Notes under the pieces: model-generated
Told to the model about the DNA's origin: nothing
The model's database searches: none
What the model saw: the letters and a program-made list of their open reading frames with translations, nothing else
In this document: piece by piece, positions 17,122-22,637 of the stretch
Numbering within the stretch: the first letter of the stretch is position 1
How the letters are laid out: every line of letters starts with the position of its first letter
Position numbers and translations under genes: made by a program
DNA from: an uncultured Methanomassiliicoccales archaeon
GTDB lineage: Archaea > Thermoplasmatota > Thermoplasmata > RBG-16-68-12 > EA-27
DNA: 64,000 nucleotides
NCBI GenBank assembly: GCA_964396265.1
Contig: CAYNEM010000006.1
Coordinates: 60,789-124,788, forward strand
Direction: 5' to 3'

Positions 17122-17463
17122 ATGATGTGGATGAACAGCGGCAACATCAAGGAAGGCCGGATGAAGGAATTCCAGGAGTGGACGAAGAAGAACGAGAAGC
17201 TCCTGCAGAAGAACGCCCCGTCGGGATGGACGTATCGCGGCACGTACGCGTACGTCCTCGGCTTCGGCCGGTTCGGCGTGGCGGGAATGTGGGAATGCGA
17301 GAAGTACGGCGACTTCGACAACCTGCGCAACCACGACGACAAGAACTGGATGCGCCTGAACGAGGAGATGTCCGACTTCTTCGATCAGTCCGCGAGCGAA
17401 GGCGTGCTCCTGCGAGAGATCGGTGACACGAAGATCTTGGAACCGAAGAAACCACGACCGTAG
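17122..17463 (+). CDS. hypothetical protein (lower-GC, island-associated)
   Basis: 113-aa ORF, K/E/W-rich, with a GGGAGG Shine-Dalgarno-like motif about 8 nt upstream. Lies in a locally lower-GC stretch next to the recombinase genes. Confidence 0.5.
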   Translation: MMWMNSGNIKEGRMKEFQEWTKKNEKLLQKNAPSGWTYRGTYAYVLGFGRFGVAGMWECEKYGDFDNLRNHDDKNWMRLNEEMSDFFDQSASEGVLLREIGDTKILEPKKPRP

Positions 17464-17787
17464 CCCGGCTCGTTCGTGACAGGACGTGACACATTGAGGC
17501 CAGTTTAGCTCCAGCCTAGACTATTCATCGCTGTCACGTATCCGCTTGACTAGTCAAGCTTCCACCTAGAACGCCGTCGAAACCCGCTTTTCGGGCGGTT
17601 CGACCGGGTGTTCTCGCAACGATCGCGCGATCCCCGCTCCGGACCGCTCTCATGCTCCCGCGGGCACCTCGTCGCCGGAACGCGAGCTCCGCGCACACGA
17701 GTGGCGACCATGAGCATCCGCAGCATGGAAACCCTCACTTCGGTTTGTCAAGACGGGGGAGGTCGAAACGGTCTACCGTTTCGAACG

Positions 17788-18474
17788 CTACTTTCCCCTC
17801 GACGGGGGCTTGAACAGGGCGGCGTCACGCTTCTGGTCTGGCCTCCGGATGCGCTTCTCCATCTCGACCTGCACCTGGGAGAACTTGTCCTGGTCCACGA
17901 TCGGGCGGTGCTTCCCGTTGCGGAGTCCCCCGTCCTGGCGGATGTACCCGCAGTACAGCGGGTTCCTCAGGATGTTCGCGATCGTCTGGCTTTGCCATCG
18001 CTTCCCGGTCTTTGTGCGGATCTCCGCGCGGTTGAGCTCCTCGCAGACTTTTGCGATGCCACGGCCCTCGAGATACATCTCAAAGATCAGGCCGACCGTG
18101 CGCGCCTCGTTCGGGTTCACCTTGAGCGCACCGTCGCGCGTCTCGTACCCGTAAGGCCGCGTGAACTCCTCGAACCCCAGGCCCGAGCCGCCCGAACCGT
18201 GTGACAAGATACCACGTATCATGGTCTTGTAGTCGAGCTTGCGCTCGACGCACAGCTTGCGCACCGCCTCGTCCTCGTCTTTCGCACTGAAGTGCGAGAG
18301 CATCTCCTTCGTCGACCCGAATCGCAGGAAGATCTCCCGGAAGACGACGGGGTCCTTCGGAGCTGCCTCGCGACACGCGCGGCACAGGACGGGGGCCCGC
18401 ATGTCCTCAATCGGGTGTTCCTGAAGGCCGCTCCGGCTCCAGCATCGCTCGCACCGGTCGTTCCCCACGGTCAC
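17788..18474 (-). CDS. serine-recombinase-family protein lacking the catalytic resolvase domain (zinc ribbon + recombinase domain)
   Basis: N-terminal CxxC..CxxC (CERCWS..CRACRE), then the 'recombinase' domain motif RPYGYETRDGALKVNPNEARTVGLIFEMYLEG..IAKVCEELN..GIRTKTGKRWQSQTIANILRNPLYCGYI. No YxRVSTxxQ catalytic motif. Confidence 0.75.
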   Translation of the reverse strand: MTVGNDRCERCWSRSGLQEHPIEDMRAPVLCRACREAAPKDPVVFREIFLRFGSTKEMLSHFSAKDEDEAVRKLCVERKLDYKTMIRGILSHGSGGSGLGFEEFTRPYGYETRDGALKVNPNEARTVGLIFEMYLEGRGIAKVCEELNRAEIRTKTGKRWQSQTIANILRNPLYCGYIRQDGGLRNGKHRPIVDQDKFSQVQVEMEKRIRRPDQKRDAALFKPPSRGK

Positions 18475-19286
18475 GCCTCCGCCGCCAAACGATCAGCCTC
18501 GATCGCGAGCACGACCTTTCTCCCTTGAACAGCGTCCCACAATCGGTGATCGACGATCGGCTGATGGGAATCGTCGCGGACGCTCTCGTCCCATCGGATC
18601 TTCCCGACGTAGACCGGATTGTGCAGCATGTAGCGGATCCCGGACTTGCTCCAGCGGCGGCCCCGCTGCGAAGGGATCCCATCGTCGTTGAGTTTGGCGG
18701 CGATCGCATGGAAGGCGCGCCCCTGGGCGTATTCCTCGAAAATGCCTCGGACGATGCGCGCCTCCGCCTCGTCCACGATGAGCGCACCGTCCACGTATCG
18801 ATACCCGAAGGGGCGGCGGAACCCGTTGAGCCCTTCCCCGGCCTTGTGCTTCTGCGCCATCCCCATGTACACGCGCTCCCCGATCTGCTCGGACTCGAGC
18901 TGCGCGATGCGCTGGATGATGTCCATGACGAAGCGCCCCATGGCGGTGGAGGTGTCGAGGGACTCCGTCGCGCTCACGAAGTCCTTGCCCCACTTCCCCA
19001 GGTCGTCCATCATCCCCATGAAGTTCCGCGAGTTGCGGTGGATCCGGTCCATCTTGATCACGAGCATCTTGTCCCAGGCATCTCGGTCCGCAAGCATCCG
19101 CTGGTACGCGGGACGGTTCACGTTCCTCCCGGTGTGGCCGTCGTCCACGTACTCCTGCGCGACGGTCCAGCCCTGGGCGCGGCAGAATGCATGGAGACGC
19201 TCGCTCTGCGCGTCGAGGGAGAAGCCCTCCTTCGCCTGATCCTCCGTGGATACGCGGGTGTAGAGTGCGACGCGTTGAGCTGCCAT
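18471..19286 (-). CDS. serine recombinase (resolvase/invertase catalytic domain + recombinase domain)
   Basis: Catalytic-Ser motif VALYTRVSTEDQ, then the recombinase-domain motif (RPFGYRYVDGALIVDEAEARIVRGIFEEY..GIPSQRGRRWSKSGIRYMLHNPVYVG). Its stop overlaps the downstream gene start by 4 nt. Confidence 0.88.
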   Translation of the reverse strand: MAAQRVALYTRVSTEDQAKEGFSLDAQSERLHAFCRAQGWTVAQEYVDDGHTGRNVNRPAYQRMLADRDAWDKMLVIKMDRIHRNSRNFMGMMDDLGKWGKDFVSATESLDTSTAMGRFVMDIIQRIAQLESEQIGERVYMGMAQKHKAGEGLNGFRRPFGYRYVDGALIVDEAEARIVRGIFEEYAQGRAFHAIAAKLNDDGIPSQRGRRWSKSGIRYMLHNPVYVGKIRWDESVRDDSHQPIVDHRLWDAVQGRKVVLAIEADRLAAEA

Positions 19287-19352
19287 CTAGGAATCCTTCT
19301 CCTGCGGGAGCGTCGATACGCGCGCGTAGAGTGCGACTCGCTGAGTGCCCAT
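19287..19352 (-). pseudogene. duplicated 5' fragment of the serine recombinase gene (21 codons then a stop)
   Basis: Translates MGTQRVALYARVSTLPQEKDS* against MAAQRVALYTRVSTEDQ.. of the full gene immediately downstream. A ~30-bp direct repeat (GTAGAGTGCGAC.CG.TGAG.TGCCCAT) spans both start codons. Confidence 0.6.
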
Positions 19353-19626
19353 CCCGGGCCCGCATTTGCGCGTCGGCACTTAAAAGTGAGTCCGCAAGAG
19401 CACGCGATGCCCCAGAGTGAGTTCGAACCATGCCCCACATCGTGCTACATCGTGGCGAGTGACGGACCGTGTTTAGATTCAAGCTTGAATCGCCTCGTTC
19501 CAAACGCGAACTGCGAGACTAGTCTTGGATGCACCTAAACCGACCGCATCCGCGGTACAACGTCCCACCCTGGGCAACGATCGGGCCTGCCCGTTCCGCG
19601 GCCCTCGTTCGCTAGGCCCCCGGCTG

Positions 19627-19761
19627 ATGAACGAAAAAGAAAAGCAAGGCCCCGCGCTCGGCGCGTTCTGCAAGCTGGATTGGCGGCTCTTCGACCCGGC
19701 GAACCTCGAGGGGCGGTTCGATGGAGAGCGGTACTTGGAAGCTGTCCCGGGAATGAAGTGA
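19627..19761 (+). CDS. small conserved ORF A (~44 aa), paralog of ORF B
   Basis: MNEKEKQGPALGAFCKLDWRLFDPANLEGRFDGERYLEAVPGMK. It shares LDWRLFDxAxLxxRFxGxRYxE with ORF B at 20632. The two copies differ mostly at synonymous sites. Confidence 0.5.
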   Translation: MNEKEKQGPALGAFCKLDWRLFDPANLEGRFDGERYLEAVPGMK

Positions 19762-19802
19762 CGGACGGTCGCTGAGGTCCGGCTGATTACATTTAATTAC
19801 AT

Positions 19803-19810
19803 TTATATAC
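19803..19810 (+). promoter_or_regulatory. TATA box (TTTATATA) for the UPF0175/PIN operon, preceded by tandem ATTACATTTA repeats
   Basis: AT-rich motif 30 nt upstream of ATG 19833 in an otherwise GC-rich genome. Implies a leaderless transcript. Confidence 0.6.
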
Positions 19811-19832
19811 AAGTGTAACGCTGGCAACCTCC

Positions 19833-20132
19833 ATGAAGGTCATCACCGTCCGGATCCCCGACGAGGATGCCGAGTCCCTGGAGTCCATCGAGCGCGCCGA
19901 GAAGGTGGACCGCGCGGCCGCGGTCCGGAAGCTCCTCTCCGAGGGCATCAACCGGTGGAAGGTGCAGAGGGCCCTGGATCTCCTCCGCCAGCATCGGGTG
20001 ACCCTGCGCACAGCGGCGCGCATGGCGGGCCTCTCCTACGGGGAGATGTTCGATCTGGCGGGCCGGGCGGACATCACGACAGGCTATTCCCTTCAGGACC
20101 TCCGACAGGACCTGGGGGAGCCGGACCGGTGA
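19833..20132 (+). CDS. UPF0175-family antitoxin-like protein
   Basis: 99 aa. C-terminal HTH (VTLRTAARMAGLSYGEMFDLAGRADI) typical of UPF0175. Strong TATA box TTTATATA at 19803-19810, 30 nt upstream of the ATG. Its stop overlaps the start of the PIN gene. Confidence 0.75.
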   Translation: MKVITVRIPDEDAESLESIERAEKVDRAAAVRKLLSEGINRWKVQRALDLLRQHRVTLRTAARMAGLSYGEMFDLAGRADITTGYSLQDLRQDLGEPDR

Positions 20133-20632
20133 TCGTCGATTCCTCCGCCCTCATCCCGCTCAGCCGCATCGGCCGCCTCGACCTGCTTCGCCGGTTGTAC
20201 CGCCCTGTGAGGACGACGCGGGACGTCTACCGCGAGTGCGTCGAGGAGGGGGCAGCCCGGCCCGGAGCCGACGCCCTTCGCGAGGCCTGCGAGCGGTGGC
20301 TTGAGGTCGTGGAGCCCCCCCGCGGCGCCGCGCGACTGGCCGCCGCCGAGGGGATCGAGCTAGCCGACGCCTCGCTCCTGCTCCTGTGCGAGGAGGCGAA
20401 GGACGCCCTGCTCACGAACGACGACCACCTGATGCGCGTGGCCCGGGCGCGCGGGATCCGGGGGCGCTGGCTCACGGGCGCCGTCCTCGCCGCCACACGG
20501 AGGGGACTGTTGACCCCCGCGGAGGCGAAGGAGCTCGTGACCCGGCTCGTCGGCGAGGGACTGTGGCTCTCCCCCCAGGTCTTCGTGGCAGTGCTGGACG
20601 CAATTGAGGCGATGACCGCTTCCCCGCGGTGA
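20129..20632 (+). CDS. PIN-domain toxin (DUF3368-like), partner of the UPF0175 gene
   Basis: GTG start overlapping the antitoxin stop as GTGA. VIVDSSALIPL.. and ..LLTNDDHLMRVA.. acidic residues fit a PIN nuclease of the type usually paired with UPF0175. Confidence 0.7.
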   Translation: MIVDSSALIPLSRIGRLDLLRRLYRPVRTTRDVYRECVEEGAARPGADALREACERWLEVVEPPRGAARLAAAEGIELADASLLLLCEEAKDALLTNDDHLMRVARARGIRGRWLTGAVLAATRRGLLTPAEAKELVTRLVGEGLWLSPQVFVAVLDAIEAMTASPR

Positions 20633-20772
20633 TGGCAGGTGAACGCAGAGAGCTATTGGACTGGCGACTGTTTGATTCCGCGACACTGTCCCGGCGGTTC
20701 AACGGGGACAGGTACGTCGAGCGCCTGAAGGGCCTGAGGCCGTCCCCGGACGAGGTTCGGCGAAAGGCTTAG
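20632..20772 (+). CDS. small conserved ORF B (~46 aa), paralog of ORF A
   Basis: MAGERRELLDWRLFDSATLSRRFNGDRYVERLKGLRPSPDEVRRKA. Its ATG overlaps the PIN gene stop as TGATG. Confidence 0.5.
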   Translation: MAGERRELLDWRLFDSATLSRRFNGDRYVERLKGLRPSPDEVRRKA

Positions 20773-20784
20773 GGCCCAGATGGG

Positions 20785-21138
20785 TCAGCCTTTGAGCCAC
20801 TTGGAGGCCCTCTTTGCGTCCCGCTCGAGTTCCTCGGGCGAATACCGGAAGTAGGGGATGCCCCGCTTGGCGGCCTCGTCGACCATTTCGTAGATACTCA
20901 CGCCAGCGTAGGCGGCAGCCCCGCCAAGGCTGAACTTGCCATGGAGGTACTTCTCCAGCGCGCGTTCCATTCGCAGCCGCCGGAGGCCCTCGTCCACCGC
21001 CCGCCGCGCCACGTCGGATCGGAGGAGGCGGAGGTCCGCGGCCAGCTCATCGATCTCCTCTAGGACATGCTCGTCCTTGCGGATCTGGAGGTTCTTCACA
21101 GGGCGATGTAATGACTTGTCATGTGATAAACTTTCCAT
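20785..21138 (-). CDS. UPF0175-like HTH protein (orphan antitoxin-like)
   Basis: 117 aa from ATG 21138. C-terminal ..KFSLGGAAAYAGVSIYEMVDEAAKRGIPY.. resembles the UPF0175 HTH. The longer 266-aa ORF upstream of it is low-complexity and unlikely to be translated. Confidence 0.5.
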   Translation of the reverse strand: MESLSHDKSLHRPVKNLQIRKDEHVLEEIDELAADLRLLRSDVARRAVDEGLRRLRMERALEKYLHGKFSLGGAAAYAGVSIYEMVDEAAKRGIPYFRYSPEELERDAKRASKWLKG

Positions 21139-21287
21139 CAGACGAGCCTCAGTGGAGGTTCCACCCTCCGCCGCGGGAAAGGAAGGAAGGGGAACAGGAC
21201 CCCCGGCGGAGGAACGTGCGCCAGGTCCAAGGCATGGGATTCTGCCATCGATGTATTTAAATGGCATTATGGCATAGTCTACCGCCG

Positions 21288-21554
21288 ATGGCGGAGCTCG
21301 TTTCGGTGGACCGCGCAGGGCGCGTCGTGCTGCCCAAGAAGATCCGAGACGCCTTGGGTATCGACGAGCGGACGAAGCTCCTCGTCGCGGTCGGTGAGCA
21401 CGGTCGACTGGTGCTCCAGAAAGTGGATGTGGAGGCCATCGCGGGTCGGCTGGAGAAGGAACTCGCCGGGAAGGACGTGGATGCGATTGTCCGGAAAGTC
21501 CGGAGGGAGATGAAGGCCCTTGCCCGCCGCCGGTATCCGGACCTTCTTGCTTGA
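21288..21554 (+). CDS. vapB: AbrB/SpoVT-type antitoxin (VapB-like)
   Basis: MAELVSVDRAGRVVLPKKIRDALGI.. swapped-hairpin AbrB motif. TATA-like TATTTAAAT at 21254-21262. Confidence 0.8.
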   Translation: MAELVSVDRAGRVVLPKKIRDALGIDERTKLLVAVGEHGRLVLQKVDVEAIAGRLEKELAGKDVDAIVRKVRREMKALARRRYPDLLA

Positions 21555-21951
21555 CACGAACGTCTTCGTGGCAGCGGTGAAGCACCCGGCGAGGGAGACC
21601 GCCACGCTCCGTCTCCTCCTCGAGGTCCTTCGGCGCGACGACGTCGCTCTCGTCGGGAACGACCTGTGGCTCGAAGAGATGCTCCGGTATGCCGAGGCCT
21701 TCCGTTCCGAGACCGCCTCCCAGCTCGTCGCCGCCTTAGTCGAGAAGACGCGGTTCGTTCGCGTCGACGCAAGCTTTCGGGCCGTCTGCCGACGGTTCAT
21801 GACCACTCCCGACCCCGCGGATGTCCTCCACGCCGCGACCTGCCTGCAGGAACGGGCGGTCCTCGTCACGAACGATCGGCACTTCGACCGGATCCGGAAG
21901 GAGGGCATCGTCGAGGTCTGGGACATCGCGAAAGCCATTCACTCCCTCTGA
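21520..21951 (+). CDS. vapC: PIN-domain toxin VapC
   Basis: FLLDTNVFVAA.. and ..VTNDRHF.. match conserved PIN acidic residues. Overlaps the 3' end of vapB, so its exact start is uncertain. Confidence 0.8.
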   Translation: MPAAGIRTFLLDTNVFVAAVKHPARETATLRLLLEVLRRDDVALVGNDLWLEEMLRYAEAFRSETASQLVAALVEKTRFVRVDASFRAVCRRFMTTPDPADVLHAATCLQERAVLVTNDRHFDRIRKEGIVEVWDIAKAIHSL

Positions 21952-22178
21952 GTCCCGCCGTTAGGTCGATGGACGAGTGCGAGCCGTAGCTGGACTAGCC
22001 GACGTTCTGCAAGGTGGAGTGGCAGCTCTTGACCCCGTCGACCTGACGCCCGTCCCGAAAGCTGGCATCGGATCCCCGATGGGGCGAGGCGACTTCTCCG
22101 CGACATGTCGCGCGCATCCCTTTCGACAGAGAAACCCAACCAGGCTCGGCGGCGACGAGCCGCCAGAAGGACCCAACC

Positions 22179-22637
22179 ATGCGAACGAACGAAGAAGGTG
22201 TGTCTCCGGTGATTGCGACCATCCTGATGGTGGCGATCACCGTGGTGTTGGCGGCGGTGCTGTACGTGATGGTGACGAACCTGATCGACGACCCCGGCGG
22301 ACGGCGACCCATCGTCACCCTGGACTCGATGGGATGCGATGCGGTTGAGTGCCGGGGGCGCGTGACGGCTGCCTCGTCGCCCTCGGTCGATCTGGGCCGG
22401 TTCCGCGTGACCGTCCTCGCCGACGGGAACGCCCTGATCCTCCCGACGGAACTTGTGGCCGGCGTGGACATCAGCGGAGGGGGCCTCACGCTCCGATACA
22501 CGGATCTTGGTGCCGAGGGGAAGGTGACGGGCGGCGACACGTTCCGCATCACGGGGATCTCGGCGGGGGTGGAGTACGAGGTCGTTCTCTTGTGGAACGA
22601 CGGAACGGGAATCCAGTCCGTGACGTTCAGCACCTAG
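22179..22637 (+). CDS. archaeal type IV pilin-like protein (class III signal peptide, DUF1628-type N-terminus)
   Basis: MRTNEEGVSPVIATILMVAITVVLAAVLYVMV is a typical prepilin-peptidase (PibD/FlaK) substrate N-terminus (..G/VSPVIA..). Confidence 0.8.
   Translation: MRTNEEGVSPVIATILMVAITVVLAAVLYVMVTNLIDDPGGRRPIVTLDSMGCDAVECRGRVTAASSPSVDLGRFRVTVLADGNALILPTELVAGVDISGGGLTLRYTDLGAEGKVTGGDTFRITGISAGVEYEVVLLWNDGTGIQSVTFST

Follow-up and report, generated by a model that had tools for sequence, protein, structure and literature searches.

Tandem duplication at the start of an archaeal serine recombinase gene and a candidate coupled upstream reading frame

Described systems and the recombinase locus

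In fuselloviruses, SSV-type integrases are tyrosine recombinases with attP inside int; upon integration, usually into a tRNA gene, int is divided between the two ends of the provirus. The element analyzed here, a repeated piece of coding sequence at the 5' end of a serine recombinase gene, lies in a stretch of 64,000 nucleotides (nt; GC content 66.5%) from an uncultured Methanomassiliicoccales archaeon (NCBI GenBank assembly GCA_964396265.1, contig CAYNEM010000006.1), which we refer to as the window. The likeness to SSV-type partition is superficial, that is, it consists in a recombinase gene accompanied by a repeated piece of its own coding sequence; here, by contrast, the enzyme is a serine recombinase (PF00239), the gene is whole, the two copies are adjacent, and the locus is syntenic across genera. 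The feature is not a member of the attachment-site (att) or integrase-partition class.

The enzyme itself is closest to the large serine recombinases, exemplified by TP901-1 integrase, with which it has in common an N-terminal catalytic domain followed by a Recombinase domain and a YxRVST motif. It differs from them in that the protein ends at 271 amino acids (aa), with no Pfam zinc-ribbon or coiled-coil C-terminal region matched, and in that CxxC motifs and a second Recombinase domain sit in a separate partner gene.

The expression of the gene bears comparison with two further systems. In Thermoplasma leaderless mRNAs are reported to be widely used, and distal cistrons in archaea tend to carry Shine-Dalgarno (SD) motifs (PMC7531240). 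Single-copy relatives of the recombinase gene would fit the leaderless pattern, with a TATA-like box about 30 nt before the start and no room for a 5' untranslated region, whereas in the window lineage the putative leaderless start would open a short open reading frame (mini-ORF), and the recombinase would now be an internal cistron. Termination-reinitiation in Haloferax and E. coli needs overlaps or very short distances, and a distance of about 20 nt almost completely abolishes it (PMC10666635; PMC6728339). The arrangement at the recombinase start resembles translationally coupled cistron pairs (PMC6728339; Huber et al., 2023, PMC10666635) in that the stop codon touches or overlaps the start codon (TAGATG in the window, ATGA or TTGA in relatives), in that an SD-like motif lies within the upstream ORF, and in that the distances fall in the only range where reinitiation worked. 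It differs in that the first cistron, 18-21 codons long, is derived by decay from a copy of the start of the second and is not a partner protein gene, and in that the mini-ORF would be initiated leaderless.

As a mutation, the feature belongs to the ordinary class of short tandem duplications. Like other short in-frame tandem duplications, which arise by illegitimate recombination or template switching, it has head-to-tail copies without a spacer, single-copy outgroups, and a unit end kept at the junction. It departs from them in two respects: both resolved events start exactly at the start codon without visible microhomology at the junction, and the event recurred within the same 60 nt of the same gene family. 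The best overall explanation of the locus, which we regard as probable, combines a tandem duplication of the gene start, a leaderless mini-ORF, and coupling of the recombinase to that mini-ORF.

Structure and origin of the duplicated gene start

The features of the recombinase 5' end are as follows.

18471..19286, minus strand: serine recombinase gene, 271 aa, with Resolvase (PF00239, 3.3e-35) and Recombinase (PF07508, 3.8e-23) domains (Pfam)
19287..19352, minus strand: copy 1, comprising the ancestral start codon and decayed codons 1-22, now a 21-codon upstream ORF, MGTQRVALYARVSTLPQEKDS, with TAG at 19289..19287
19221..19286, minus strand: copy 2, the present first 22 recombinase codons, MAAQRVALYTRVSTEDQAKEGF, including the catalytic-serine motif YTRVST
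19294..19302, minus strand: purine-rich, putatively SD-like stretch GGAGAAGGA, 8-16 nt before the recombinase ATG, derived from the Lys19-Glu20-Gly21 codons (ancestral AAGGAGGGC)
19379..19385, minus strand: TATA-like box TTTTAAG, 27-33 nt upstream of the ATG of copy 1, presumed promoter of the whole unit

The initial annotation of this DNA, a model's reading of the letters, had reported a second copy of the first ~20 recombinase codons directly upstream of the gene, ending in a TAG that touches the real ATG, and both observations hold. The 21-codon ORF (19352..19287, minus strand) is in frame with the recombinase ATG at 19286, and its stop codon (19289..19287) abuts that ATG as TAGATG, with a spacer of 0 nt. 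The two start codons are separated by exactly 66 nt, and the copies are contiguous, head to tail, without a spacer. Copy 1 and copy 2 are identical at 34/42 nt over the first 14 codons and at 45/63 nt overall, and the tail of copy 1 retains residual homology to codons 17-20 (CAGGnGAAGGA, 10/11). The direct repeat had been given as 30 bp; the repeat is real, but this length is too short, since the repeat search returns 60 nt at 75% identity (19228-19287 vs. 19294-19353), of which the 30 bp are the best-conserved core. The local alignment of the duplicate scores 29, whereas shuffled upstream sequence scores at most 14. Elsewhere in the window there is no other tandem repeat with a period of 20 or more, and a genome-wide tendency towards tandem repeats of about 60 nt was rejected on the ground that the 64 kb contain no second such repeat.

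Comparison with single-copy orthologues identifies the duplicated unit. Two relatives at 87-88% identity, L005 (P0003) and L006 (P0004), have an intact single-copy recombinase gene in the same position and gene order, and their genes start MGTQRVALYARVSTEDQ, which is the sequence of the upstream fragment, whereas the window gene starts MAAQRVALYT. In the DNA alignment (A1) the window carries 66 additional nt relative to L005 and L006, and a relative at 91% identity, L007, carries 63 additional nt; L088 (63 nt) and L089-L091 (66 nt) are likewise duplicated. The junction in L089-L091 reads ...TAG TTC/ATG (slash at the junction), in which TTC is ancestral codon 22. Since codon 22 is retained in these loci ahead of the second ATG, the duplicated unit comprises nt 1-66 of the gene in head-to-tail arrangement. 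The duplication-bearing lineages of the window clade (clade A) are monophyletic (100% bootstrap), single-copy L005 and L006 fall just outside (100%), and about 150 other loci of the family carry no such repeat in DNA-level scans, apart from three exceptions (L098/L100, L101, and L171/L172).

The two copies have changed in complementary fashion. Relative to single-copy orthologues, copy 1 has 1-5 differences in its first 42 nt (in the window, 1 vs. L005 and 2 vs. L006) and 12-13 in its last 24 nt, and copy 2 has 7-11 differences in its first 42 nt (in the window, 7-8) and 1-2 in its last 24 nt. Thus the outer halves of the duplicate are conserved and the inner halves have changed fast; the synonymous divergence (dS) to L005 is 0.46. 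We conclude, with high confidence, that the feature is a head-to-tail duplication of recombinase nt 1-66 (codons 1-22) in the ancestor of one small clade.

Three other origins were weighed against this duplication. An assembly artefact, a concern raised in the initial annotation, or a chance similarity is of negligible probability and has no observation in its favor: exactly this arrangement recurs in four Logan assemblies, independent of one another and made from four sequencing runs (SRR6155509, SRR12685303, SRR12685288, and SRR6155504), diverged homologous versions are present in ENA and JGI assemblies from other projects (L007, L088-L091), and the 20-nt repeat core has 2 matches in the window with up to 3 mismatches allowed, against 0.11 expected. 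A displaced allele is improbable but has more to recommend it. According to this explanation, the fragment is the resident 5' end, left behind after illegitimate recombination with an incoming, diverged, homologous recombinase allele; this would account for a fragment head almost identical to the true start of the orthologues (MGTQRVALYA), for a working gene that starts differently and is more diverged over its first 42 nt (7-11/42) than the gene average of about 13%, and it fits the evidence that recombination occurs at the locus, where the 5' region and gene body of L099 disagree phylogenetically. An incoming allele does not, however, account for a start-to-start distance of exactly 66 nt, for the codon 22 (TTC) kept at the L089 junction, or for the homology to codons 17-20 retained in the fragment tail; moreover, from codon 11 on the gene groups normally with its clade, with no foreign segment evident, and in a second duplicated clade (clade B, below) both copies bear the clade-specific 10-codon head.

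Very improbable, finally, is the reading raised in the initial annotation, that is, an attachment site overlapping the gene start, with SSV-like partition of the gene, or another product of site-specific recombination by this enzyme. What speaks for it is that a recombinase with a 5' direct repeat adjoins a variable region, with a ~2.5-kb toxin-antitoxin cassette upstream in the window lineage only, and that copies of a separate 21-nt motif, in direct orientation, lie on either side of the two-gene operon. Against this, the gene is whole (271 aa, both domains) with the 21-codon copy immediately adjacent; the repeat core, which had been expected at the far end of an island, has no third copy in the window; the chromosomal context is kept at 75-77% identity; and there is no empty site, as the gene pair is present at 75-92% identity and single-copy orthologues occupy the same position, with L005 and L006 lacking the duplication while their recombinase is intact, a finding that the initial annotation had named in advance as refuting. 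The cassette stops about 190 nt short of the fragment on its upstream side and is lacking in other duplicated lineages such as L007, the junctions, judged from their sequences, lack the shared central dinucleotide that a serine-recombinase crossover would need, and the recombinase family has only two short matches in the viral collection. The sole tRNA gene in the window is at 58232. Of the proposed recombination scar, the part that stands is an illegitimate, local tandem duplication; the site-specific part does not. A false lead is thereby removed: there is no attachment site and no split integrase.

Stop-start adjacency and recurrence of the duplication

The position of promoter-like elements suggests how the duplicated locus may be expressed. 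In single-copy relatives the conserved GGGATGGG start is preceded, at 27-35 nt, by a TATA-like box (TTTTTAAG or TTTTAAG), and in every duplicated locus a TTTTAAG box lies 27-33 nt before the ATG of copy 1; no duplicated locus has a TATA-like box between the copies, that is, before copy 2. The string CTTTTAAGTGCCGACGCGCAAATGCGGGCCCGGG-ATG varies hardly at all among the window, L005, L006, L007, L088, and L089. Other first genes in the window also have TATA-like boxes about 30 nt before their starts, and internal cistrons have GGAGG-like SD motifs. The spacing of the box suggests a leaderless mRNA with its 5' end at or just before the start codon.

According to the proposed mechanism, the promoter would have stayed with copy 1, so that the transcript would start at the ATG of copy 1 and the real recombinase start would lie 66 nt inside the RNA. 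Copy 1 decayed to a 21-codon upstream ORF with its TAG touching the real ATG. Ribosomes would initiate at the leaderless AUG and translate the mini-ORF as far as the TAG, where they would terminate and then reinitiate on the adjacent ATG, and the SD-like purine run derived from the duplicated Lys-Glu-Gly codons would assist reinitiation. Both transcription start at copy 1 and translation of the mini-ORF are read from the sequence, and we lean, with modest confidence, towards translation of the recombinase by such termination-reinitiation coupling.

The pattern across duplicated loci is consistent with coupling. In 7/7 variants the upstream ORF has 18-21 codons and a stop at -4, -4, 0, 0, 0, +1, or +3 nt relative to the recombinase start, which is preceded at 7-17 nt by an SD-like purine motif. 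One of these variants, L101, keeps the stop-start adjacency despite indels that shift the start to TTG.

The variants derive from more than one duplication. Clade B, comprising L098, L100, and L101 (=L170), carries a 56-nt, out-of-frame duplication ending at a Gln codon (Gln17 in window numbering), with a junction that reads ...GAC CA/ATG. L098 and L100 have MHSNGVRIMAYARVSTGDQ as their upstream ORF, with a TGA that forms ATGA together with the real ATG and with 56 nt from start to start; L101 shares the decayed clade B upstream copy, and its relocated TTG start lies one nt after the TGA. Both clade B copies have a 10-codon head before the Tyr codon, and both window-clade copies have an 8-codon head. 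Because the unit ends (Phe22 vs. Gln17) and the clade-specific head lengths (8 vs. 10 codons) differ, the clade A and clade B events are independent, and a single ancient duplication followed by many losses is rejected for these two clades on the same ground. A clade uniting all duplicated loci has 0% bootstrap, and many single-copy lineages separate clade B from the window clade. We conclude that the clade B duplication is an event independent of that in the window clade. A third variant, in L171 and L172, has the upstream ORF MGTKEVALYGCVSPPRGSA and a TTGA stop-start overlap; it may represent a third event or may share the event of the window clade, to which L171 is sister with 64.5% support.

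The duplicated sequences themselves may explain why these endpoints survived. In a pristine clade A duplicate the ancestral AAGGAGGGC (Lys-Glu-Gly) would fall 5 nt before the second ATG, and in a pristine clade B duplicate a ACGGAGGAC-type string (Thr-Glu-Asp; ACGGAAGAC in the L097 proxy) would fall 4 nt before it.

The principal competitor to a coupled mini-ORF is a neutral scar, that is, a real duplication without function, in which the recombinase is made by ordinary SD-dependent internal initiation or low-level initiation and the proximity of the stop is incidental. We consider this unlikely, but it carries appreciable weight, and several observations that count against coupling count in its favor; the arrangement could be a tolerated neutral scar. 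The peptide of the mini-ORF is not conserved (V6A and A10G in L007), so that the mini-ORF matters, if at all, only through being translated. The leader RNA has no unusual structure, its minimum free energy being no better than that of shuffles (z = +0.55), so that no structured element speaks for regulation. About 150 family loci do without the duplication, and L099, nested among duplicated lineages, is single-copy again. The stops of the window, L088, and L089 may share one inherited event, which would leave about 3-4 independent observations of adjacency rather than 7. Coupling is further weakened by the SD-like motif, which some lineages have in a poor form (GGAGAAGGA in the window; GGGGGAAG, lying 10-17 nt upstream, in L089), and the putative leaderless status is read from the spacing of the TATA-like box. 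A neutral scar is, on the other side, difficult to reconcile with stops at -4 to +3 nt in 7/7 variants from at least two independent events, with an adjacency that outlived indel restructuring in L101, with a clade B ATGA overlap that was made by a second-codon change in copy 2 after the duplication, and with a copy 1 whose first 42 nt are far better conserved than its tail (1/42 vs. 12/24 differences, at a dS to L005 of 0.46).

Two other roles for the upstream sequence were rejected. A structured leader or riboswitch is at odds with the z-score given above and with the lack of any Rfam match in 17300-19900. Readthrough of TAG as pyrrolysine, giving an N-terminally extended enzyme, is at odds with the use of TAG as the commonest stop in the window, where it ends 25/54 long ORFs with high third-position GC content.

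If coupling is correct, the locus would be a natural example of a short duplication by which an archaeal gene that had been leaderless became an internal cistron downstream of a mini-ORF, and the duplicated loci would be natural variants, with spacers of -4, 0, +1, and +3 nt, for the study of termination-reinitiation after leaderless initiation. The most interesting aspects of the duplication are its recurrence, the same outcome having been reached at least twice in one gene family, and the exact coincidence of both resolved duplications with the start codon. A tentative generalization, which we put forward as one possibility, is that this gene has, at its 5' end, repeatedly exchanged a leaderless start for one coupled to a mini-ORF, through duplications that begin at the start codon (the presumed 5' end of the transcript) and are selected for re-tuning of recombinase dosage, and that the direct repeats could allow reversion by deletion, making the locus a slow expression switch. 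If this were true, repeated conversion would document one way in which upstream ORFs are born in archaea. Among the papers searched, none combines leaderless genes, tandem duplication, and upstream ORFs.

Two further loci show changes at the same start. L099 (1010-1170) is single-copy with an intact, ancestral-type head, yet its gene body is nested in clade B as sister to L098 (94% bootstrap), which points to recombination between lineages at the locus, not to simple reversion. Reversion of L099 by deletion between the repeats was rejected, since its intact ancestral head is unlike the decayed copy 1 of L098 and L101. In L173 (2985-3020; GCA_053530475.1, JAIYTA010000060.1) a 1-nt insertion (ATGGGTCGCACTC) puts the ancestral GGGATGGG start out of frame; the called start is a GTG 15 nt downstream, and the old ATG now begins an out-of-frame ORF of 12 codons overlapping the gene. 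The insertion is either another demotion of a leaderless start or a sequencing indel.

The recombinase pair and its surroundings

The recombinase is one member of a gene pair, the second of which is the following.

17788..18474, minus strand: second operon gene, 226-228 aa, PF07508 at 1.9e-23, with CxxC...CxxC motifs and without a catalytic domain

The best match of the recombinase to a solved structure is the catalytic domain of TP901-1 integrase (PDB 3BVP, 1.5e-29), with the N-terminus of which its YTRVST motif aligns. The product of the second gene shares 43% identity with the Recombinase domain of its partner, and the second gene (226-231 aa) stands beside the recombinase in every relative examined (L001-L007, L168, L170, L171, and L173). 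Together the two genes resemble a large serine recombinase split into two chains. In Methanomassiliicoccales loci such as L053, L054, L059, and L067, two full catalytic-domain genes, about 830 nt apart in tandem, are found instead of the pair.

The pair belongs to the chromosome. The gene order (STAND-TPR, pilin on the opposite strand, recombinase, second gene, small ORF, RFC large subunit, Taw1, VTT, NOG1) is the same in relatives down to 75-77% protein identity, and the pair is found in this context at 75-92% identity across relatives. Given a neighborhood kept at such identities (75-77%), the pair is a resident of the chromosome and not the integrase of a recent island. The window as a whole encodes, among others, the RFC large subunit, an archaeal type IV pilin, and toxin-antitoxin modules, and the relatives are labeled as Thermoplasmata, Methanobacteriota, or Methanomassiliicoccales metagenome-assembled genomes. 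The recombinase family (270-290 aa) comprises 258 loci in species-representative genomes and more than 566 in metagenomes, as compared to just two short matches in the viral collection (IMG/VR), and a prophage or viral origin was rejected on these counts. Among duplication-bearing lineages the recombinase has a ratio of nonsynonymous to synonymous divergence (dN/dS) of 0.07-0.19; purifying selection on it persists. We conclude that the recombinase pair is a widespread, vertically inherited gene pair of Thermoplasmata. Among the papers searched, we found none describing this recombinase family in Thermoplasmata, and the role of the pair is probably a more interesting question than the duplication.

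The 21-nt motif that flanks the operon, TAGGTG-N7-GACTAGTC, in which GACTAGTC is a palindrome, occurs at 19517-19537 and 17548-17568 (minus strand, direct orientation), that is, about 230 nt before the two genes and about 220 nt after them. These are its only two matches in the window, against 0.17 expected, and its positions are conserved in the window clade (downstream in L005, L088, and L089-L091; near-matches upstream). Judged from their sequence and placement, the motifs may serve the enzyme pair as recombination sites or may act as promoter or terminator elements.

The adjoining pilin gene contains a 17-nt near-perfect palindrome (22207-22242), conserved in relatives, which encodes the hydrophobic N-terminal segment VIATILMVAIT. 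A role of the recombinase as an invertase of this gene was rejected: inverted repeats inside pilin genes are inconsistent between loci, and the conserved palindrome merely encodes the N-terminus.

Between the pilin gene and the recombinase promoter lies the ~2.5-kb toxin-antitoxin insertion (~19544-22083), present in the window lineage only, which contains the following genes.

19833-20632: RHH/UPF0175 and PIN-like gene
20785-21138, minus strand: UPF0175 gene
21261-21951: MazE and PIN

The insertion has no flanking direct repeats longer than 7 nt. It was rejected as the cause of the scar, its edge being about 190 nt away, without flanking repeats, and the insertion being absent from duplicated L007. 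Beside the toxin-antitoxin modules lies a 39-nt repeat with 82% identity (19664-19702 and 22003-22041). Small ORFs of about 45 aa with the motif LDWRLFDxxxLxxRFxGxRY, for which there is no Pfam match, occur on the plus strand at 19612-19761, 20629-20772, and ~21990-22100, and may be cassette-associated repeats or a small accessory gene.

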